Origin: a virus
Direction: 5' to 3' (one strand)
Length of the DNA: 64,000 bases
IMG/VR virus record: IMGVR_UViG_3300037311_000355
A program made the translations under genes and the position numbers. Below are positions 34,704 through 63,838 of this stretch, piece by piece (within the stretch, counting starts at the first letter, position 1; the number at the start of each line of letters is the position of its first letter). The notes beneath the pieces are model-generated. The model was not told where the DNA came from. It saw only the letters and a list, made by a program, of their open reading frames with translations, and did not search any database.

Positions 34704-35570
34704 TTAGCTAATGGCTATTACCGAAGACAGCAGAACCGCGACTTCTTCGCCGGCACCAGATGTCTGGTTTAAGGGGTAGCCCAAAATGGTTCCTGAAGAG
34801 CTTTGCTGAACCCTACCATCGGCGGCTCCGCGTACCTGATTGGGAGGCGGACTAATGTTGAAATCAGAGGGCGTAATAATTCCCGCGGATTGAAAAATTT
34901 GAATTCTTGCCGTGGAAATTAAAACCTGACCGGATTCCAATCCTTCAATTCGTCCCACAGGGAGATCAAAAGGACCGCCTGGTATGGGGTCCTGGCCGCC
35001 GCTTGTCGCCGCCAAATCATAGGTAGCTGGCACGGGCTGACCAAGTCCAAAATTGGTGATGTCGCCGGATGCGACCGGCGAAACCGTTATCACGTTTGCA
35101 AACACCGAAACCGCAAGCAGGCCAGCCCCCAGTTGGGCGTCAAATTCGGCCTGCAAAGCCGCGCCGGCGTTTTGGGCCTCCTCTTCGGCGTCTGAGCCCG
35201 GAGTCCAGTCAACGCCGCTTTCTAGCTCTACCGAACCGTACCTGGTATCGGAAAACCCTAAAAGCTCGCCCGGGTTGGACGGAGCGTTTACAGTAAATTG
35301 AATCTCGTAGGGCTCTCCCGGGTCGGCGTCGCGTTCCTGGTATACGAAAACACCGGCGCCTTCCGAAGGCCTTAACATGGCAAGCTTCCCTACGTCGGCT
35401 TCTGTTACCGGGGTTACGGAATTGTTGTCTAAGACAACGGTTGGCGACAACCCGCCGGGGCCGGGTCCGGGGCTTCCTTGGTTGGTTGCAATTGCCGATT
35501 CCAGCTCATCGGCCGCGGATTGGCTAGTTAACGCGTGTGCGAGCCTTTGTTTAGTGTCTTGTGATAGCAT
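34704..35570 (-). CDS. orphan virion decoration/fibre-like protein
   Basis: N-terminus MLSQDTKQRLAHALTSQSAADELE matches 47303..47986; CAATCTTT motif at 35598-35605. Confidence 0.65.
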   Translation of the reverse strand: MLSQDTKQRLAHALTSQSAADELESAIATNQGSPGPGPGGLSPTVVLDNNSVTPVTEADVGKLAMLRPSEGAGVFVYQERDADPGEPYEIQFTVNAPSNPGELLGFSDTRYGSVELESGVDWTPGSDAEEEAQNAGAALQAEFDAQLGAGLLAVSVFANVITVSPVASGDITNFGLGQPVPATYDLAATSGGQDPIPGGPFDLPVGRIEGLESGQVLISTARIQIFQSAGIITPSDFNISPPPNQVRGAADGRVQQSSSGTILGYPLNQTSGAGEEVAVLLSSVIAIS

Positions 35571-52453: not shown

Positions 52454-53449
52454 TCAAAGATTGTCTTCGTCGCTGCCGTCGGAGGTTACCCATACCTGGT
52501 CTTCAGACAACTCCGGCACGGAATCCAGGTTTGACAGGATCTTTACTGAGGCGCCGCCGTAGCAATCCTCGTTGGCAACCACAGACTCTATGACCCGGTA
52601 CGGGGTTTTAAGCCAGCTTTGCTCCGCGACTCCGGAAAGCGTGACGTAACGACTAAAGACGCGGTCGGCACCCGGGCTGTCAACGTGTTGGTTTACCACC
52701 ATGTCAGAGCTGGAAATCGAAGACCTGTCGAGTCCGTTTTGTTCAAGCAGACCCTCTCTATACCTGAGAAGGATAAAAACAACGATTTGATGTAACCAAA
52801 GCAGCGCAGACGCGTCGCCCTGTACGTGACAGCCTATGGAATACGATTCGTTAAAAAAAGCGCGCTCTCGCCTGGTACGATAGATTTGGTACTGAGGCAC
52901 CACGGCCAGTTTTGACGCCGCAAGCTCGGCACCGGCTTCGATAAACACCGAAGAGTCGCTTTTTGACTCCACAACGTACCCGTTGCCGTTTGACGGATCC
53001 ACGACAACCATACCGGGCTCCACGACATCCGAAGACACGCCGTCTGGGAGACCGATTTCTCCGGTGTCGCCGTTGTAAAACGCAGGTACGAAAGGTTTGA
53101 CAATGTATGGAATAGGCCTACCTATAGCCGACGGCATGACATCCTCGACCTCGGTACTAAGATCTGAGTTTGTTTTTAAATCCAGGTCTTCGCTGCTGTT
53201 GCCCAACGCAATAGTAACGCAGGGGTACTCGTCTTTGTCGTTTCTGTACCTGAGCAAAACATCTATTTTGTTGTTTTGAATCCATTCCTTACACCGATCG
53301 ATCTCTTTTTGTCCGTATTTTTCCCTCATAAAGGGGTTTTTCACAAAAGCCGACATCATGTCGTCGATTAGCCACGGCTGTTTTTTCAGGTCTTCGAGAC
53401 CGAGTTCGATGCACTGTTTTATGACAACGTCGCCGAAAAAGAAGCTCAT
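52454..53449 (-). CDS. tail completion/terminator-like protein
   Basis: EYPCVTIALG, YSIGCH, WL..IV.FILLRY, FSRYVTL; upstream of the sheath. Confidence 0.6.
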   Translation of the reverse strand: MSFFFGDVVIKQCIELGLEDLKKQPWLIDDMMSAFVKNPFMREKYGQKEIDRCKEWIQNNKIDVLLRYRNDKDEYPCVTIALGNSSEDLDLKTNSDLSTEVEDVMPSAIGRPIPYIVKPFVPAFYNGDTGEIGLPDGVSSDVVEPGMVVVDPSNGNGYVVESKSDSSVFIEAGAELAASKLAVVPQYQIYRTRRERAFFNESYSIGCHVQGDASALLWLHQIVVFILLRYREGLLEQNGLDRSSISSSDMVVNQHVDSPGADRVFSRYVTLSGVAEQSWLKTPYRVIESVVANEDCYGGASVKILSNLDSVPELSEDQVWVTSDGSDEDNL

Positions 53450-54192
53450 TCAAACCTCGCCATAACAGCCGGAAGCACCTCGGACTCCCAGGTTTGTTCC
53501 GCCCACTGCAGTGCCCTGCCAAGAAAGTCTTTGGGTTGCAAACCGGGGTGGTGCCACTTGTCCATGCGTTTTTCGCTGATAACCCTAAACGTAAGAATGT
53601 CGCGTCTCACGCCACCCGAGGGGGTTTTGGTTTGATATATGGTGACCCCGCTAAGCGCGGGGTGACTAGCTTTTTGACTGGGCTCCGGACTGCTGAAATT
53701 AAATCTGTGCAGCGCACCCAGCCTTGGGCTGCCATCGGCGTTGTATTCGATCTTTTTGAAAGGCACGCCGGCTTTTTTAAGCTCAGATCTTATCTTGGCT
53801 TTCATGCCCTGGGCAAAACCAGACATTTGGGAATCCGGTTTGCTGTGCTCGAAGGGAATCGCGCGATAGCGGTGACCGTCTTTGGACACCTTGGCCCCGT
53901 TTTTAAGCAGGTCTTCGTGCATGGGCCCGGCTTTGCGACCGTCTTCGATAAATAGCGCGGGTTCGTCGACGCTCACCACCCAAATGCCTGAGCTGATTTC
54001 TTCAAAACCCAGGTTATCTAGGAATTTCTTGCGCGTCGACGACAGCTCTTTGTTAGCGGTCTCCACGACATGGGCGTGAGTCATGGCTGCCAACGACTTC
54101 ACGGCCTCATCTAATGCGGCCTTGACCTCGTTTTTAAACTCGCCCATTTCTGAGACAAAAGCTTCGGTATTGAAGAAAAACCTTAATGACAT
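53446..54192 (-). CDS. neck/tail-completion protein (HK97 gp10-like fold)
   Basis: A.FIEDG...GPM...LL, TFRVIS....KW.HPG....FL.RA. Confidence 0.6.
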   Translation of the reverse strand: MSLRFFFNTEAFVSEMGEFKNEVKAALDEAVKSLAAMTHAHVVETANKELSSTRKKFLDNLGFEEISSGIWVVSVDEPALFIEDGRKAGPMHEDLLKNGAKVSKDGHRYRAIPFEHSKPDSQMSGFAQGMKAKIRSELKKAGVPFKKIEYNADGSPRLGALHRFNFSSPEPSQKASHPALSGVTIYQTKTPSGGVRRDILTFRVISEKRMDKWHHPGLQPKDFLGRALQWAEQTWESEVLPAVMARFE

Positions 54193-54395
54193 CAGTACCT
54201 TTCGTGCGTGAGATCGCCGCCGGAATCCAAGGCCACGCCTTTTTTTCTATCGATCCACTTACGTCTTCCGGTTTGGTTGTCGACGACGATTTGCAAACCC
54301 TCGTACGTTATCGCACCCTCGGGAAGGGGTTTTTTGGCCACATGCGCTGTGCTTTGTCGAGTCGGAAGACGGGCCTTTTCAACCGACTCTAGGCT
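54192..54395 (-). CDS. 67-aa C-terminal extension reached by -1 frameshift from 54389..55624
   Basis: Open -1 frame SLESVEKARLPTRQSTAHVAKK...HERY with no start codon of its own; its TGA overlaps the next ATG. Confidence 0.7.
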   Translation of the reverse strand, partial: SLESVEKARLPTRQSTAHVAKKPLPEGAITYEGLQIVVDNQTGRRKWIDRKKGVALDSGGDLTHERY

Positions 54396-54401
54396 TTTGG
54401 G
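54359..54401 (-). promoter_or_regulatory. -1 programmed ribosomal frameshift cassette
   Basis: Slippery C-CCA-AAA (54401-54395), 5-nt spacer, GAGTCGG/CCGACTC stem (54389-54383 / 54365-54359). Confidence 0.7.
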
Positions 54402-55624
54402 AGCGATTGGCCCCCGGAATCGGATTGCCCGCCTTCTTGGGCGCCAAGCTCTTTGGCCATGGCGACCATGGTTTGCAACATGGCAATCACGCTTTTATAC
54501 GCATCTGGAGCCGCGGTTTTCATTTCGTCAATAACTGACTTGTTTTGTTTGAACTGCTCCAGGATTTGCGCGATTTTTTGTCGCAACTCGTCTGGGGTAG
54601 CAGAGCTTTCCAGCATTTCCTGCAAGGCGTAAAACTCCTCGCTTGGCCCGCCGTCTTCCGGCGCGCCCTGGTTTTCCGCGTCGCCGCCGACGGCGCCGGG
54701 ATCCGAGATGTCAGGAGACTCCTGGGCTTCAGGGGCTTGCATTTCGGGTTCCGGTGATTTTTCCGCGGTTTCCGTGTTTTGCTCTTCTTCGTTGGCGTCA
54801 ACGAATTTATCAGATTCCGGGATTTCAATTGCGCCGTCTTCGTTGGAACCACTGTGGTCGCCGCCGACATCCTCATCTTCGCTGTCTTCGGACTGCTCGT
54901 CTTCGCCTAAGATCTCATCTACGTGAGACTGCGTGCTGTGTTCGGCGCTTTTTTCTGATTCGCTTTCGTCAAAGCTGTCTTCTGTAGTCGGCGATTCAAA
55001 ACCCGGAGACCACTCGTTTTCGTCGTCGGCGTCGATTTCCGGCGGCATCTCGGTATGAGTTGGCCCCTCGTCGCGGTAGTCCTGCATTGAGTCGCCGTCA
55101 AATTCGCCGATGCCATCGGATTCCGAACGCCAGTGGTCGTCGCCCTCGATCTCATCGTCGGAATCCCCCATGACGTGATCGAGGTAGTGCTCGTTAATCT
55201 TATTTTCTTCCTCGGTACCGTCTTGGTGATTATGTGCGGCGTGAAGCGCGTCTTCGACTTCGTGGCTGTATGCCATGGACTGGTTTTTACCCGAAAGCTT
55301 GCCCGCCAACAAAGATTTGCCAGCCTGGCTAAGAGTTAGCCCGTGACCGACAGTAACCGTAATGCCGCCTGAGGCGTCTGTGAATTTCTGCCTTAGGTCT
55401 TCGATTTCTTCGCGATGCCTGGGATCCAGCATTGCCGTCATTTCATCGCCGCCACTGCTGATAACCGTGCCGCCGCGCTGGGTAACCCAGGAAATCGCGG
55501 CCTGAAGCCCGAGCCCGATGTGTTTGGAAACCGAATGCAGTGCCTCTACGTCGTCCATGAGAACCGCTTGCCCCACCTTGCCTCCGGCGTTATCAGCGTC
55601 TAGTGCGATAAAAAGTTTATTCAT
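54389..55624 (-). CDS. mCpol-like (minimal CRISPR polymerase / nucleotide cyclase palm) domain + long acidic linker + helical domain
   Basis: N-terminal FIALDADNAG...VISSGGDE...TVTVGHG...A.KSLL.GK..GKN; Asp/Glu-rich middle region. Confidence 0.7.
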   Translation of the reverse strand: MNKLFIALDADNAGGKVGQAVLMDDVEALHSVSKHIGLGLQAAISWVTQRGGTVISSGGDEMTAMLDPRHREEIEDLRQKFTDASGGITVTVGHGLTLSQAGKSLLAGKLSGKNQSMAYSHEVEDALHAAHNHQDGTEEENKINEHYLDHVMGDSDDEIEGDDHWRSESDGIGEFDGDSMQDYRDEGPTHTEMPPEIDADDENEWSPGFESPTTEDSFDESESEKSAEHSTQSHVDEILGEDEQSEDSEDEDVGGDHSGSNEDGAIEIPESDKFVDANEEEQNTETAEKSPEPEMQAPEAQESPDISDPGAVGGDAENQGAPEDGGPSEEFYALQEMLESSATPDELRQKIAQILEQFKQNKSVIDEMKTAAPDAYKSVIAMLQTMVAMAKELGAQEGGQSDSGGQSLPKA

Positions 55625-56435
55625 AACGTCTCCTGGCTTTTTTGTCTCTTAGTGTCGCAAGCAACAATTCTATGTTTTCCTGATCCCAGCTCTTGGGGAA
55701 ACTAAACGCCACCCCGGTTTCCGTTTTTCTGATGTAAATCTTTGCGTTGCGGTCGTCTCCCAAACACACGCATCCCGAAAACCCGCTTTGAGCAAAAACA
55801 CACATGCCGCAGTCCGGGCATTGCACGGATTCGTTTTTGGCAATCTCCACCTTAAACTCGGGTTTCCTACGGTTTACAAACGACTTAAGCTTGAGTTCGT
55901 TTTTTTTGCCCGCGGCGGCTATTTTTTCTTCCACCAAAGCCTCGATTTGAGACTTTTGTTCCATTTTTTGTTCAACCGCAGTGGCTACTATGGCCTCCAG
56001 TGCCGGCGATAGCTCAGCGCCTTCGGTTTTTTTAGGCGACGGCAGCTGTGAGTTTATGGCGTCGATGTCATAGAGTTCAAAAGTGGTCATTATAACCAAC
56101 CCCACGCCGGGCATGCTGCGGTTCCTAAAAGTTGCCAGCGACTTGCCCTCCTGGGAAATGGATCCGCTATAGACGTCGTTGGCGTGTTTGGTTACGGCAA
56201 GGACGGCCTTGGGCTCGACGGGAAGCTCTATGTCTTTGCCGGAATCCGACTCCATGCCCTGGAGTTCTTTTTGCAGAAGCGCAAGCACGGCTTTGGGCAC
56301 GATTTGAAGCGCGGTCTTAATCTCTTCGTGGTCGACAACAGTGTTTGTCTGTTGTTTCCAAACCTCGAACTTTTTAAGACTGTCTTCGCCAAATACGGCG
56401 GCGGCGAATTTTAGCGCGGAACCGATGTCACGCAT
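55617..56435 (-). CDS. hypothetical protein with C-terminal zinc ribbon
   Basis: CPDCG...CVC; coupled to both neighbours. Confidence 0.7.
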   Translation of the reverse strand: MRDIGSALKFAAAVFGEDSLKKFEVWKQQTNTVVDHEEIKTALQIVPKAVLALLQKELQGMESDSGKDIELPVEPKAVLAVTKHANDVYSGSISQEGKSLATFRNRSMPGVGLVIMTTFELYDIDAINSQLPSPKKTEGAELSPALEAIVATAVEQKMEQKSQIEALVEEKIAAAGKKNELKLKSFVNRRKPEFKVEIAKNESVQCPDCGMCVFAQSGFSGCVCLGDDRNAKIYIRKTETGVAFSFPKSWDQENIELLLATLRDKKARRRYE

Positions 56436-58719: not shown

Positions 58720-59430
58720 CTAAGATTGTCGCGGCGTTACGTCGTGTTCTTCTCCGACGTCTACGGCGTCGTATAGGGCGACTACGTGCGGGAGCGTGGG
58801 GTGGCCGCTGTTATAAAACCCCTTGTATCCCGCGGACTTAAGTCTTTCGTGGACGTCGTCGATGTTTAGCGCGCCATGGGAGGCTTGCATTGAGACCCTG
58901 ACATGAGACTCGGGATCCGTGCCCAGATCATAGAGTTTATGCGTGGCGGGAAGCCGTACCTTGTATTTCGACCGCGAGCCCTGCGCGACCAGCGACTCCG
59001 GTGTCGTGCCCTCGCGGTAGAAAAACGTGTGCGGATGCCAGGTGTCGCGTCTCGCCGAGCGATCAACGCCGGTGCCCTTGAATCTGGGGTCGATTTGTTT
59101 CAGGCCTTGTTTGGGTGAGTAGTGTTCCAGCCTGATCTCTTCAGACTTTTCAAAGTCGAAATTATGCGAGAAATGCTCGCCGCTGGGAAGCGTGGAAAAC
59201 ATATCTTTGGGCGCTTGGCTGTAAAATTGCGTTCCCGAGCCGCGGACGATGGTCCCGGCTTTGGGTCCGTGATTGAAAACCATTTTGTGCGCGACGCCGT
59301 CGCTTTCGATGTGCGATTCCTGACCCGTGGTATGAGCAAGACGTCTAATGGCTGCCAATTGCTGCTTTGAGGGTCGGGAAACCAATATCGAGCGTTCCGG
59401 AGATCCGTAGTGTCCGCTAATCGAATGCAC
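58720..59430 (-). CDS. probable C-terminal continuation of the polyvalent protein; contains an ART-like domain
   Basis: Only a GTG start, 3 nt after the G9 run; HSISGHYGSPERSILV completes the domain begun upstream; LEHYSP...GTG...TFFY...LKSAGYKG is ART-like. Confidence 0.7.
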   Translation of the reverse strand: MHSISGHYGSPERSILVSRPSKQQLAAIRRLAHTTGQESHIESDGVAHKMVFNHGPKAGTIVRGSGTQFYSQAPKDMFSTLPSGEHFSHNFDFEKSEEIRLEHYSPKQGLKQIDPRFKGTGVDRSARRDTWHPHTFFYREGTTPESLVAQGSRSKYKVRLPATHKLYDLGTDPESHVRVSMQASHGALNIDDVHERLKSAGYKGFYNSGHPTLPHVVALYDAVDVGEEHDVTPRQS

Positions 59431-62400
59431 GTCCCCCCCCCTTAATAGCGCGTAGCGCAGCTATAGCGTCGTCGTGGGAGATTTGTTTTTTTATTTTGTC
59501 CGCATATGGCGAGTTTTCCACACTAAAAATGGCATGTGGGGCGCCCACGATGGGGTGCGAGACGCTTTTGTTTTCTGACTTTTTAATAGGCCTACGAGAT
59601 CGTAAAAAGTTTTGAGCAACGCGCTCCGCTTCTTCAGGGCTGGTAACCACCCCGGCACCGGCGTAGTTGTCAGAGGTATGTTCAATGCCGTTGTGAGTCA
59701 TTACCTGCTCATGAGTTAGATCATGGGCGTCCCACATATGAAGATGCCCGTTGGGGTCTCCAAAATAACGCATTGCTTCGGCCTTGGCTCCTTGAAACAG
59801 TTTTTTTGCCTGACCCGGGGAGGGGTTTTTATGAACCCTGTGGTTAAGTCCGGTTTCTACCGGAACCCTATATACGCTCTTATTAAGAGTTTCAACTTTT
59901 TTTACAGGCTTACCAAAGCCGCGGTTTTTTTGTCTCCACAGCGCTGCGCCCTCCTTGGACTGTGCTTCGAGATCGGGCACCATACGCAACCCGGTGCGCG
60001 ACTCCAGGCTTGCGTACATCGCCGACGCCAGGCCTTTTCTTTGGTGTTCAGGGTGTACGTCAACAATATTGGCTTGCATGGTGCCGTCACCGAGGTCTTC
60101 GGCGACGACGTGACCTACGACTCGCCCACTGCTATCCAGGGCTTGCATAGCGTGGGCGCCTGGCGTCGATTTGTCGTGCAAGATTTTATAGCCCTCGGAT
60201 TTCCAATCGCCCCTGGCGCCTTTTTTTATTTCAGATCCCTGTCTTGGAGCATAGGTGCCGTGTCTGACGAAATGATTAGCGTCGGCGTATCCGATTTCCG
60301 GCCTAGTTGGATGGGCGCTAGTCCCCTGAACTGGCGATCCATCGACGTGAGCGATTTCAAAATCCCGGGTCCAAAAACCAGCGCGATTGTTTTTGTCGTT
60401 TTGCGCGTCTGCGATTAAAGATCTAAGTTTTTGATGCGCGGGGTGTCTGCGGTTTAATAACACACTGGAGTGCCCTCTAACCGAGGGTTGTCCGGCCACG
60501 CCGACGGCAATCCAGCCCTCTTTTAATTTTGCATTCATGTGGGCGCCAAGTTCGCCCTCCGTCATGTAAATTCGGTCTTCGGGTCCTATTTTTAACGTCC
60601 GTCGCGCCAAAACGGTCGAGTGCGTTTCCCCAGGGTCCATGTGGCGGTATTTGCCTTCCGGCGAAATCCAGCCATGAATGGGATTAAGTCCGGTTTTATG
60701 TCGGAGGTTTTCCCACTGCTCTTTTTTAAGCGGATTTGTTTTTTTTGGCGCCTGTTTTTCCTTTTTATCCGGATAGTATTTGTCTATAAGCGCCCACATA
60801 CGCGCGGTTTCCCGGCGTTTTTTTTCAGCCCCTGCGTCTTTGGGGGCGCCGCCGTCTGCGCTTGCGGATTTCTTAACAGCCGGTCTTGTCACGTTTGGTT
60901 TTGATTGTTTTTTGCCCGACATCGCGGCTTCGGCGGCACGCACAGCTGCGTCTATGGCCCTGCCGTGCTCGGACCTAGCCTTTTGGTCTTCTTTTGCCGT
61001 CCTGGGTCGCTGCATGCGCAGCTCAGCTAGTTTTTTATCCGTCCAGGACTTGTAAAGCAATGCCAGGCTTTCGCTGGCCGCCAGTCTTTGATCCCCGGAT
61101 TCAGGCCTTAGCTCCAAGGCCGCGGCTGCCACGCGTTTCCAGCCGCGCTTCATGTCTTGAATCAGCGCACGGCTTTTGTTGGGATCCGAGTAACTGGGAT
61201 CCAGTTTTCCCGCGTGATATATAAATCGCTGTCTTTTTTCCGGATTTGACAGCACGTCTCGGGTTGTGTTTAAAACCTCTTGAACGTAGCCGGACTTCTC
61301 GGGTTTGTAACCCACCGTTGTCAAATAGTTGTGCATCGCGCTTTGATGTTCGGCGCTGAAGTGTTTGCCAATCAAATCCCGGAGCACGGCGTCGGCGTTG
61401 CCGTGACCGATTTTGTGGCCCAGGGCGTCCATGGCTTGGTGCCCGGCCTCGTGGGCCTGCGTGTATTCCAGGCGTTTCTGCGCCGACAGCCTGCCCTCGC
61501 TTTGGCCCGGATTTCTCACTTTGTTGTATTTGCCGCCGTAGGCGAAGGCCACGTCTTTGTCTTCGGATTCGCCCTGGATCTGTGCTCCACCTAATTTAGA
61601 GGGTGCGAAATTTCTTAGCACGCGCTTGACGTTTTGCTCGACACCGGCGTCGGTTAAAAACCTAGCCCTGGGGTGGTAGTTGATGACGCGCCTGGCCTGG
61701 ATCTCCCTTTGCCTAGGTGTGGTAACTATTGCCACCGAAGACGTTTTGTCGTCGATGCCGTAGCCGGGAAACCTAAGCCTGGGTTGAGATTTTTTTACAC
61801 CAAGCTTTTCCGTCCTAGTACCAGGCCTGCGCTGCCGACTGAGTATTTTCGCGTCTCTGGGGTCAAAAACCACGTAGTTGTGATGGTCGTCGTGTTGGTA
61901 TTTGATTCCTTTTATGCCTAGTTGGTGTAAATGCGCGCTGATTTCTTTATCCGACATATTTAGATAATGCCGGTGGCCGCCGTAAAACTCGCCGCCCTTG
62001 AGCTGCTCGCCGGTTAAAAACTGTCCGGGGCTTTTTGCCGCCCTGTCGTTGGCGTCGCGATACCCCTGCGTGCCGCGGATCGCGTCTCGGACCTTTTTAG
62101 GCTGCTTGGCTACCGGAAGATCCCAGTGCAGCATCTCGTGATCCGAGGGCCTGTCGACGCGATAGAGTCCGCCCTTGCCGGGATCTGACCTTAGATTGGC
62201 GTAGAAGCCGGCTTCGTTTTTGCTCGAACTCAAGTAAATTCCATGTCCTCTGCTGGTCCCGTGTTGGGAGCCCGCCTTGTCGGTGTCAAAAGATTCGAAG
62301 TCGTTTGGGCTGCCGTGGTAGGCCAACGGGGATTTGCGAAGCTCGCTTGCCGCCAAAGGCTTTGGTTTTTGTTGCTTAGCAGATTTGTAATTGGGGTGTT

Positions 62401-63838
62401 CTGCTACCGCCCATCTCACATCTGCGTCGGCGTCGGTGTGTAGCGCGTGTAAGATGTCAGAAGGAGCCAATTCATTAGACAGCGCAGCGGTATGGCCGCG
62501 GTAGCCGTGACTGATCTTATTATGAAATATTTTTTTCACGTTTTCAGCAGAGGTATTTTTTGTCGTGTGCGGCGACACCAGATATTCGTTTTCGTTGCCA
62601 AATTTTTGACTAGTCGCGTTTTTGTGACCGAGATCGTAGCTGTACCAGATGTTGTCCAAGGGCACCATTCGGTGTTTCATCGTATCGCCGAAACCCGTGT
62701 TTTCTACGTCGCCGTAGCTGTGCAGCTGGTGTTCGGGACCGGTTTTAAAGACACCCTTGTACCCCCTGGTAAGCGCGACATGAGGCCTGCCGTCGATGGT
62801 ATGTACTCGATGACTGGCATGAGCTAAGATGTTTTCTCTCAGCCTGTTTTTGTGCCAGCGCAATTGCCGGGCTATTTTTTTACCGTGGGCGGCGGCGAAT
62901 TCGTGAAGGTCTTCAATAGTTATGTGTGAATTTTTTTCCGCCGCACCGCCGCTCTGGTGCAGGTCCATAAAGTTTTTGTCGGCTCGGGCCGCGGATTTCG
63001 CGTTGGCGTAGTTTTTGCGGTTTTCCATGACATTGACGATGTATTTAAGCGCCAGACTCGCCGGGTGATGAGGACTGTGCTTGTAGTGTCTGAAAAGCGT
63101 GCTTGCGCTGGGTTCGCGGTTTTTGTAAAACTGAAACTCTTTTTCTATTTTTGTCTTCTTGCGCTCGGCTTTTTCAAGCCCGTCGCCGTCGTCGTTTTCT
63201 TGGTGTTCGCGGTCGTGTTTGGCCTGATCCCAGGGATCGTCGAATTCCACGGGTTTCGGCGACGCCGGAGCGGGCTCTGGCTTCCGGTTTTCATTGCCCT
63301 GTTTTTCACCGTCTTCGCTCGCCGCCAGTTTTTTACCGGAAAATGGCAGCGTCTCCACGGTTACCGCGCCTTCGCAATACACGGGATCGCTGAACCGGAT
63401 GTCGGTGAACCCGGATTTCACATGCTGGTCGTAAATGGATTTGGGAACCGTGACACGGGCTTGAAAACTAGGGTACGTGTATCCGGTGCCGCGGTGGCGT
63501 TTGTAGACGTTTTTATAGGCCTCTGGCATGCCGTGGAGCTTGATGTGATAGTAGGCGTTGCCGTCGGGACCCTGAAACACACCGGGCTCCTGCGTCAGTT
63601 TGTGCTCGCCGGGGTTGGGAAGGCCTCGGAAGTCGTCAAGATGGCGTCTCGCGTTGTCTTCGGGTTTGAATTGTTTCACTGTTACGTGATACGGCAAGCC
63701 GTTGGGCTGATGGCTTTCCCCGTTTACGGCGACAGGCACTATGATGCTGTGACGCTCGCTGGCGCGGCGCTTATAGGCGGCGTCGGTTTTTTTAAGCGCG
63801 CCCGCGGCTCCACGCAGGGCATCCCAGAGTTTTCCCAT
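59417..63838 (-). CDS. polyvalent multi-enzyme protein (2H phosphoesterase-like, R-S-E ART-like, HEAT/LRV repeat, ART-PolyVal-like, HExxH peptidase, GNAT, unknown domains)
   Basis: YHVTV; LTRG/LHSY/ENEYLV; AYHGS...GHGIYLS...EAGFYA; HEAGH; VDVHPEHQRKGLASAMY. Confidence 0.8.
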   Translation of the reverse strand: MGKLWDALRGAAGALKKTDAAYKRRASERHSIIVPVAVNGESHQPNGLPYHVTVKQFKPEDNARRHLDDFRGLPNPGEHKLTQEPGVFQGPDGNAYYHIKLHGMPEAYKNVYKRHRGTGYTYPSFQARVTVPKSIYDQHVKSGFTDIRFSDPVYCEGAVTVETLPFSGKKLAASEDGEKQGNENRKPEPAPASPKPVEFDDPWDQAKHDREHQENDDGDGLEKAERKKTKIEKEFQFYKNREPSASTLFRHYKHSPHHPASLALKYIVNVMENRKNYANAKSAARADKNFMDLHQSGGAAEKNSHITIEDLHEFAAAHGKKIARQLRWHKNRLRENILAHASHRVHTIDGRPHVALTRGYKGVFKTGPEHQLHSYGDVENTGFGDTMKHRMVPLDNIWYSYDLGHKNATSQKFGNENEYLVSPHTTKNTSAENVKKIFHNKISHGYRGHTAALSNELAPSDILHALHTDADADVRWAVAEHPNYKSAKQQKPKPLAASELRKSPLAYHGSPNDFESFDTDKAGSQHGTSRGHGIYLSSSKNEAGFYANLRSDPGKGGLYRVDRPSDHEMLHWDLPVAKQPKKVRDAIRGTQGYRDANDRAAKSPGQFLTGEQLKGGEFYGGHRHYLNMSDKEISAHLHQLGIKGIKYQHDDHHNYVVFDPRDAKILSRQRRPGTRTEKLGVKKSQPRLRFPGYGIDDKTSSVAIVTTPRQREIQARRVINYHPRARFLTDAGVEQNVKRVLRNFAPSKLGGAQIQGESEDKDVAFAYGGKYNKVRNPGQSEGRLSAQKRLEYTQAHEAGHQAMDALGHKIGHGNADAVLRDLIGKHFSAEHQSAMHNYLTTVGYKPEKSGYVQEVLNTTRDVLSNPEKRQRFIYHAGKLDPSYSDPNKSRALIQDMKRGWKRVAAAALELRPESGDQRLAASESLALLYKSWTDKKLAELRMQRPRTAKEDQKARSEHGRAIDAAVRAAEAAMSGKKQSKPNVTRPAVKKSASADGGAPKDAGAEKKRRETARMWALIDKYYPDKKEKQAPKKTNPLKKEQWENLRHKTGLNPIHGWISPEGKYRHMDPGETHSTVLARRTLKIGPEDRIYMTEGELGAHMNAKLKEGWIAVGVAGQPSVRGHSSVLLNRRHPAHQKLRSLIADAQNDKNNRAGFWTRDFEIAHVDGSPVQGTSAHPTRPEIGYADANHFVRHGTYAPRQGSEIKKGARGDWKSEGYKILHDKSTPGAHAMQALDSSGRVVGHVVAEDLGDGTMQANIVDVHPEHQRKGLASAMYASLESRTGLRMVPDLEAQSKEGAALWRQKNRGFGKPVKKVETLNKSVYRVPVETGLNHRVHKNPSPGQAKKLFQGAKAEAMRYFGDPNGHLHMWDAHDLTHEQVMTHNGIEHTSDNYAGAGVVTSPEEAERVAQNFLRSRRPIKKSENKSVSHPIVGAPHAIFSVENSPYADKIKKQISHDDAIAALRAIKGGGRAFD
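59433..59441 (-). repeat. G9 homopolymer separating two halves of one reading frame
   Basis: Nine C on the + strand; G8 would fuse 63838..58720 into 1705 aa. Confidence 0.9.

Follow-up and report, generated by a model that had tools for sequence, protein, structure and literature searches.

A predicted three-part -1 frameshift cassette, conserved in a phage gene family that carries an mCpol-like domain

Results

We analyzed a 64,000-nucleotide stretch of viral DNA (hereafter, the window) and found that the gene for an mCpol-like protein on its minus strand ends in a three-part cassette: an internal Shine-Dalgarno (SD)-like sequence, a slippery heptamer and a predicted stem-loop, with a coding tail (domain E) in the -1 frame. 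A programmed -1 ribosomal frameshift that uses all three parts and sets the ratio of short to long carrier chains is the best overall explanation, and we put its probability at roughly 85%. That the window site itself shifts is, judging by its sequence, very likely. The initial annotation had proposed that such a shift yields two isoforms of the mCpol-like protein. This proposal held up, because the heptamer, spacer, stem and coding tail were all kept in homologues and the N-terminus belongs to PF18182; the frameshift, however, belongs to the part of the carrier formed by domains H and E, and not to the cyclase domain as such. The upstream SD, a class of -2 sites, a reversed polarity and a site in Myxococcus phage Mx1, all described below, are additions beyond the heptamer and stem first noticed.

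Predicted frameshift site of the window phage

The 0-frame end of the 411-aa ORF reads CTC CCA AAA GCC TAG on the minus strand, with GCC as the sole codon before the TAG (54391–54389). As first described, the heptamer C_CCA_AAA is in frame with this ORF one codon before its stop, a 5-nt spacer leads into a 7-bp stem (here calculated at -13.1 kcal/mol), and the -1 frame stays open for 67 codons to a TGA (54194–54192) that overlaps the ATG of the next gene (Table 1). The predicted products of 411 aa (44 kDa) and 477 aa (52 kDa) and the junction ...SLPK/SLESVEK were reproduced as well. Two details changed. The proposed stem extension AAG/CUU did not form, and ViennaRNA instead added GA/UC over a 2x2 loop. 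The -1 frame had also been said to have no start codon of its own: it has no ATG, but GTG (54341) and TTG (54296) are present, both within the conserved domain E and neither with an SD. The third element of the cassette, the SD-like GGGGG upstream of the heptamer, was absent from the first description.

Table 1. Features of the carrier gene, its frameshift cassette and the following gene in the window.
Feature	Position	Strand	Remarks
0-frame ORF; short product, mCpol - acidic linker - H	54389..55624	-	411 aa
mCpol (PF18182), residues 5-117	55274..55612	-	E-value 1.2e-10, above cut-off
Acidic low-complexity linker, residues ~150-330	54635..55177	-	36% D+E
H domain, residues 333-397, three helices	54434..54628	-	In nearly all full-length homologues
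Internal Shine-Dalgarno-like GGGGG	54411..54415	-	Ends 10 nt before P-site codon; anti-SD energy -8.6; predicted 5' stimulator
Slippery heptamer C_CCA_AAA (Pro-Lys)	54395..54401	-	Sequence and homologues
Spacer, 5 nt	54390..54394	-	Most homologues 6 nt; last base of TAG (54391-54389) is first stem base
Stem-loop, predicted stimulatory	54359..54389	-	Arms 54389-54383 and 54365-54359
-1 frame extension, 67 codons + TGA	54192..54395	-	SLES-VEKA linker, then domain E (basic, pI 9.5)
Next gene, conserved putative neck protein	53446..54192	-	248 aa; ATG overlaps E stop; SD-like GAAAGG at 54203-54198

The window stem alone was within chance (z = -0.96 against shuffles and z = -1.3 against synonymous recoding), and heptamers alone were frequent, with 43 in the 36 genes of the window (13,990 codons). 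Among the 43, only the heptamer described here was accompanied by both an SD and a stem. What lies beyond chance here is this combination and its conservation, not the stem or the heptamer by itself. The coding strand had no terminator-like site at the junction.

A one-base assembly error or a decayed gene was also considered, and it is true that in-frame fusions of E exist elsewhere in the family. However, the gene and junction were identical in two JGI assemblies from other samples, which excludes a one-base assembly error for practical purposes, and the same break with the same signals recurred in about 50 divergent loci. We regard error or decay as having a negligible chance of being correct. 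The source contig (82 kb, depth 26) showed no variant at the site, although this observation is not independent of the window sequence. The window phage came from a freshwater sample.

Conservation of the cassette across the family

Scans of viral and metagenome contigs gave a homologue set of 71 non-redundant loci that span about 40–60% protein identity; because these loci are related, the counts given below overstate their independence. In the set tested for the signals, an X_XXY_YYZ heptamer was present in the last 10 codons of 37 of the 38 loci with E in the -1 frame, where 1.5 were expected. Its letters varied (C_CCA_AAG, C_CCA_AAA, C_CCA_AAC, G_GGA_AAG, A_AAA_AAR and C_CCU_UUU) under a constant pattern, and synonymous recoding retained that pattern with p~0.10 per locus. 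Together these two results argue for selection on slipperiness, not on the encoded peptide.

Pairing downstream of the site set in at nt 7 (probability 0.84–0.99). Stem stability relative to synonymous recoding was z = -2.3 at the site and z = -0.5 sixty nt downstream. The 5' arms of the stem comprised 48 distinct sequences in 60 loci, and covariation analysis found 17 compensatory cells, a value reached by 0 of 500 shuffles and above every slid control. Anti-SD pairing in the family was -8.6 kcal/mol, compared to -5.8 after recoding and -2.7 for the gene background; 55 of 60 loci were below their own null, and the profile peaked 8–14 nt before the P-site codon. Published backward shifts of dnaX and IS elements have an SD spacing of 9–14 nt (PMC5009743). 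By its sequence the window site is of the bacterial dnaX/IS type, with an in-frame X_XXY_YYZ, an SD at 9–14 nt, a conserved stem after a 5–9-nt spacer and a coding shifted frame, the stem being a family-wide result that is not significant for the window sequence alone.

Continuous in-frame homologues without heptamer and stem, which the initial annotation had named as evidence against a shift, did occur, as a minority of 6 of the 71 loci. These six exceptions show the tail to be a genuine domain of the carrier protein.

The C-terminal extension, domain E

Mismatches in E by codon position were 0.19/0.125/0.60 in its own frame. This frame contained 0 stops in 47 loci, and both other frames were interrupted in 47 of 47; E is under purifying selection. 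Conservation at the protein level extends over the full length of about 60 aa, with invariant L, T, H, G and G. E also occurs in frame, as the C-terminus of this carrier, in more than 120 database proteins, of which about 68 contain mCpol and about 50 full-length ones do not. E is retained where mCpol is degenerate (Mx1) or missing (~50 H-E proteins), and it is always C-terminal.

The domain is basic, with a median net charge of +7 in the family, and its predicted model consists of one hairpin with extended arms (pLDDT 84, pTM 0.51). Searches of Pfam, PHROGs (E as part of P0016), ESM Atlas features, PDB, BFVD and Atlas structures returned no significant match. Likeness to lambda integrase or WW domains was set aside, as the Foldseek rows were weak and based on the one hairpin, with the lambda integrase N-terminal domain at an E-value of only 2.4–5. 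Co-folding of E with the 248-, 272- and 307-aa neighbor proteins gave a score of 0.00, which we count neither for nor against an interaction.

Could E be made without ribosomal slippage, by transcriptional slippage or from a start of its own? The site does contain a short A run, and 10 of 47 loci have an ATG, GTG or TTG near the junction. Against this, most loci have only three A (C_CCA_AAG), the SD and stem lie at ribosome-fitting distances and so resemble translational stimulators, and 37 of 47 loci, the window included, lack a start codon ahead of the conserved LP motif. Because of these 37 loci, and because the GTG and TTG of the window lie inside the domain, independent initiation appears unlikely from the sequences, and we consider the two routes together to be very improbable.

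Probable backward shifts by two and proposed reversed polarity

At nine loci E lies in the +1/-2 frame, and in all nine a CC_CCA_CAR immediately precedes the stop (0.3 expected). Each has a 6-nt spacer and a stem, and an SD 11–14 nt upstream. A +1 shift would need the SD at 3 nt (PMC5009743). Re-pairing of both tRNAs is possible at -2 (CCA to CCC, CAG to CAC) and impossible at +1, which makes a tandem -2 slip the likely interpretation of these sites. Grouping of the nine loci as one clade was rejected on the neck-gene tree (p-AU 3e-136).

Eight in-frame fusions retain the heptamer and stem, and seven of these also have the SD. A -1 stop follows within 1–2 codons in 6 of the 8 (background 0.29 for three codons, p~0.01), and the -1 stops include TAA, TAG and TGA. 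Four-fold sites among these loci were mostly 20–50% identical. Two of the loci, L181 and L182, were chosen for their dipeptide; the unbiased count is 6 of 13. Between the close relatives L111 (C_CCA_AAG) and L182 (G_GGA_AAG) the letters changed and the heptamer pattern stayed constant, and an in-frame locus (L154) likewise retains a -2 site. The simplest reading of these cassettes is a reversed polarity, in which the long form would be the default and the short form would be made by the shift. A scan with a narrow DNA pattern found no further reversed cassettes.

The only cultured relative found, Myxococcus phage Mx1, has the same gene order behind its portal, protease and capsid genes (OR576727.2; PMC10720576). 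Its protein WNM70340.1, annotated as hypothetical with no frameshift mentioned, contains a degenerate mCpol-like domain (catalytic residues lost), H and an E-family C-terminus. The last assignment was made through a deep-clade profile that scored 72 bits for Mx1 and 25 bits for the window E, and which bridges a weak direct profile comparison (19%). A C_CCA_AAA directly follows H (record 34805–34811). GGAGG lies 10 nt upstream of it, an 8-bp helix is separated from it by 5 nt, and the -1 frame closes one codon on (OR576727.2:34780-34870; L060:10780-10870). This site has the strongest SD of the 8 heptamers in 36 genes (13,012 codons); its stem was not beyond recoded controls (25%). Mx1 differs from the window in that E is in frame behind an inserted domain and a shift would give the short form (283 vs. 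468 aa). On sequence grounds we lean toward WNM70340.1 carrying a reversed-polarity cassette, and the cultured phage offers a bench system for the carrier. Mx1 also has a separate gene annotated 'nucleotide cyclase' (WNM70324.1; L183:17173-17904) between its protease and capsid genes.

The in-frame heptamers might instead be relics of a fixed 1-nt insertion that no longer shift, with the Mx1 site a chance by-product of an IPKA motif; this bears on the claim of reversed polarity only. A spacer of 8 nt in several in-frame loci would fit such decay, as would three other in-frame loci where Pro-Lys persists with a broken heptamer, the Mx1 stem that did not exceed its controls, and the failure to reject a single clade of reversed-polarity loci (p-AU 0.31). 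The intact pattern across the L111–L182 switch argues otherwise, and so do the three kinds of -1 stop, the SD in seven of eight loci, the -2 site kept in L154, and the prompt stop and leading SD of Mx1. Relics are, on this evidence, a minority explanation to which we give about one chance in a few, and we retain reversed polarity as our reading.

Both trees suggest several origins of reversed polarity, but a single origin was not rejected. The -1 loci were nested among reversed-polarity loci in one tree, a nesting that was not repeated on the neck-gene tree, and the latter required at least 16 state changes. Retention of the short and long pair, by -2 shift or by reversed polarity, suggests that making both forms matters, and we think it probable that both are selected. 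A slippery dipeptide precedes in-frame E in 41 of 68 proteins with mCpol vs. 8 of 59 without it (background 5%). This hints that two forms matter mostly when the cargo is present, though the proteins that lack mCpol could all belong to a single lineage.

Not every member of the family would make two forms, given the six loci without a cassette, the H-E proteins that mostly have no slippery dipeptide, and L022 and L137, which have no E. At L022 (5335) and L137/L146 (3770), where E is absent, the next gene begins within ~15 nt of the stop; the C-terminus of L137 is still PQQ, and its -2 site is broken. At another locus, L028 (2130–2230), a 12-bp stem precedes an E in the -1 frame, but there is no canonical heptamer and no clear SD. 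The sole candidate there is C_CCC_CAG, on which re-pairing is limited to the P site; it is possibly a single-tRNA slip derived from a -2 type site. L028 is the same phage as L045 and L046, and P0069 has a like C-terminus.

Comparison with known frameshift genes

The cassette resembles those of E. coli dnaX (gamma/tau) and the IS911/IS3 family, which combine an internal SD 9–14 nt upstream, X_XXY_YYZ and a 3' stem-loop (PMC5009743). By analogy to these systems, the ribosome would be held between 16S rRNA-SD pairing and the stem, and tRNA-Pro and tRNA-Lys would slip from CCA-AAA to CCC-AAA. Unshifted ribosomes would then stop one codon on, while the shifted fraction would add E and terminate where the following gene starts. 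The purpose would be to set the ratio of carrier chains with and without E. As proposed for the in-frame loci of our family, E. coli dnaX makes its long form by default and its short form by shifting into a -1 frame that closes after one codon; the opposite arrangement of dnaX has been noted in a few bacteria (PMC5009743). Unlike in dnaX and the IS elements, the extension is the common state, the main site is C_CCA_AAR, and one gene family includes -1, -2, reversed and non-shifting states.

The end of the shifted frame on the next start allows a different purpose: the shift could be real and regulatory, metering the ribosomes that reach the overlapping start of the 248-aa neck gene, with E secondary. 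The overlap of the E stop with the next start was seen in the window and in 19 of 61 loci scored, and the final E codons carry the SD of the 248-aa gene. But most loci have no such overlap, the 248-aa gene has its own SD, and E is conserved as protein throughout and also exists as a fused domain. Such coupling is improbable as the main role, and the ratio of carrier forms remains our preferred account.

Tail chaperones G/GT use a -1 shift in lambda, -2 in Mu and +1 in others (PMC5009743, PMC10885494). The carrier is similar in being a phage morphogenesis gene that keeps a ratio of short to C-terminally extended chains whatever the shift direction, and the G/GT extension adds a binding function to which E may be likened. 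Unlike G/GT, the gene lies upstream of a terminator-like gene, sheath and tube and not before the tape measure, and it carries an enzyme-like domain; there was no chaperone match in Pfam or PHROG. We know of no description of reversed polarity for G/GT. The frameshift of Lactobacillus phage A2 occurs at the same CCCAAAA site as in the window, with a stem. Frameshifts that add C-terminal, mostly Ig-like domains have been reviewed for Lactobacillus phage A2, T3, T7 gene 10 and Listeria A118/A500/PSA (PMC5009743). Like these, the carrier has a small C-terminal domain on a predicted fraction of chains, with in-frame and out-of-frame versions coexisting. Unlike them, E is ~60 aa, basic, not Ig-like, and native and vertically kept, as opposed to a roaming module, and the carrier is neither a capsid nor a major tail protein. 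We considered membership in the G/GT and Ig-extension classes, and the carrier belongs to neither.

With this family, the phage genes that use frameshifts gain a class other than the tail chaperones and the capsid/tail Ig extensions. Such genes hide in databases as a truncated gene followed by 200 nt of 'intergenic' DNA, and our literature search, which was of incomplete coverage, found no paper on the mCpol-carrier family or its frameshift. The roughly 60 cassettes of the family, diverse in site, direction and polarity, form a natural series, which includes a candidate -2 site with SD and stem. Phage Mu is the only case of bacterial -2 decoding named in a review (PMC5009743), and the rules of choice between -1 and -2 become testable on native sequences in this series. 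The ratio itself is argued to be functional, as both forms were kept through the frame flips.

The carrier protein and its gene neighborhood

The mCpol domain matched the solved OptS structures 9nwn and 9mnr (E-value ~1e-17). Residues D9, D11, S33 and D60 are kept; D9, S33 and D60 align with OptS D6, S30 and D57, and their equivalents were conserved in all 59 classed loci scored. In OptS, D6 and D57 are catalytic, S30 contacts the base, and the mCpol active site is shared between two protomers (PMC12657218). The palm fold, the D6/S30/D57 equivalents and the two-protomer active site liken the domain to Panoptes OptS (PF18182; 9MNR, 9NWN; PMC12657218, PMC12657230), and the cargo amounts to a phage version of the Panoptes signal synthase. 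Unlike OptS, it is phage-encoded, fused to linker, H and E, and it keeps a GGD(E/Q) motif that is nearly missing in OptS. Assignment as a Panoptes system was rejected, as the protein is a 411/477-aa fusion and not a stand-alone protein of ~125 aa, and its neighbors have no effector domain (2TM-beta, CARF-TM). H was modeled with pLDDT >90 in a fused homologue, and a model of H with E gave two parts, each confident, joined by a low-confidence linker (pTM 0.39).

Upstream in the gene order are an ART-PolyVal/GNAT polyvalent gene and a phrog_1004 virion structural gene (E-value 1e-3), and downstream are the 248-aa conserved gene, an SP10-terminator-like gene, sheath and tube. From these weak matches, the carrier gene sits in a putative myophage head/neck module. 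A Phi-x-K-(A/S) motif, which is a candidate maturation-protease site, often precedes E; it is common in the genes of this block and was not seen in the sheath, tube or terminator.

These features bear on what E might do. E is always C-terminal, outlasts loss of the cyclase, lies in the structural module and often follows Phi-x-K-(A/S), which would suit a virion anchor. We tentatively propose that E, a basic C-terminal module, docks the long form at a restricted set of sites in the head or neck during assembly. Short chains would either be incorporated by way of H and the obligate mCpol dimer or remain free. The mCpol domain would be the cargo, probably an active one, that the virion delivers or that works at a late stage of infection. 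In another view, E would bind nucleic acid or be directed at the host, and would relocate the mCpol cargo or control it in the infected cell. A basic E on a very acidic chain is consistent with this, as is the presence of the DNA-binding N-terminal domain of lambda integrase among the best Foldseek rows. However, those fold matches were not significant, E is retained with a dead or absent mCpol, and the structural setting with its frequent Phi-x-K-(A/S) fits poorly. This second role seems rather unlikely to us, and docking is the one we carry forward. A bolder extension, which we offer as speculation with odds well against it, is that Mx1-like myophages tune the anchored:free ratio of a virion-carried active mCpol by one cassette that switches between -1, tandem -2 and reversed states, and that the cyclic nucleotide of the packaged cyclase keeps Panoptes-type effectors shut or otherwise rewires host signaling.

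Several minor observations concern the carriers and their neighbors. The 272-aa gene upstream (window 55617–56435, minus strand) was found in nearly all loci with enough flank; it has no family match, an invariant CPDC...CxC motif and several Phi-x-K motifs. The 1473-aa polyvalent protein (window 59417–63838, minus strand) has ART-PolyVal at residues 507–664, GNAT at 1211–1290 and eight Phi-x-K-(S/A) motifs. Deep-clade carriers (P0129, P0140, P0143, P0145, P0146, P0152, P0153, P0156, P0159, P0160 and L052) have variable domains inserted between H and E and flanked by Phi-x-K-(S/A) motifs, which suggests that the carrier serves there as a polyvalent scaffold for cargo. In P0245, GNAT domains come ahead of mCpol. 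In P0176, P0177, P0183, P0211, P0241, P0013 and P0015, CxYC/DCxYC repeats stand in the linker, in place of or after mCpol, and are possible metal-binding repeats.

One family member (L098), the only match among GTDB genomes, lies on a contig of 14 kb that was assigned to a Planctomycetaceae MAG (UBA969); we set it aside as evidence of host, as it may be mis-binned phage DNA. The closest homologue of the window gene (L008; mCpol 70% identical) has an in-frame TAG in its acidic linker at 2528–2530. Beyond this TAG, which may reflect stop reassignment, readthrough, error or decay, the same frame goes on in homologous-looking sequence, and the contig ends shortly after.
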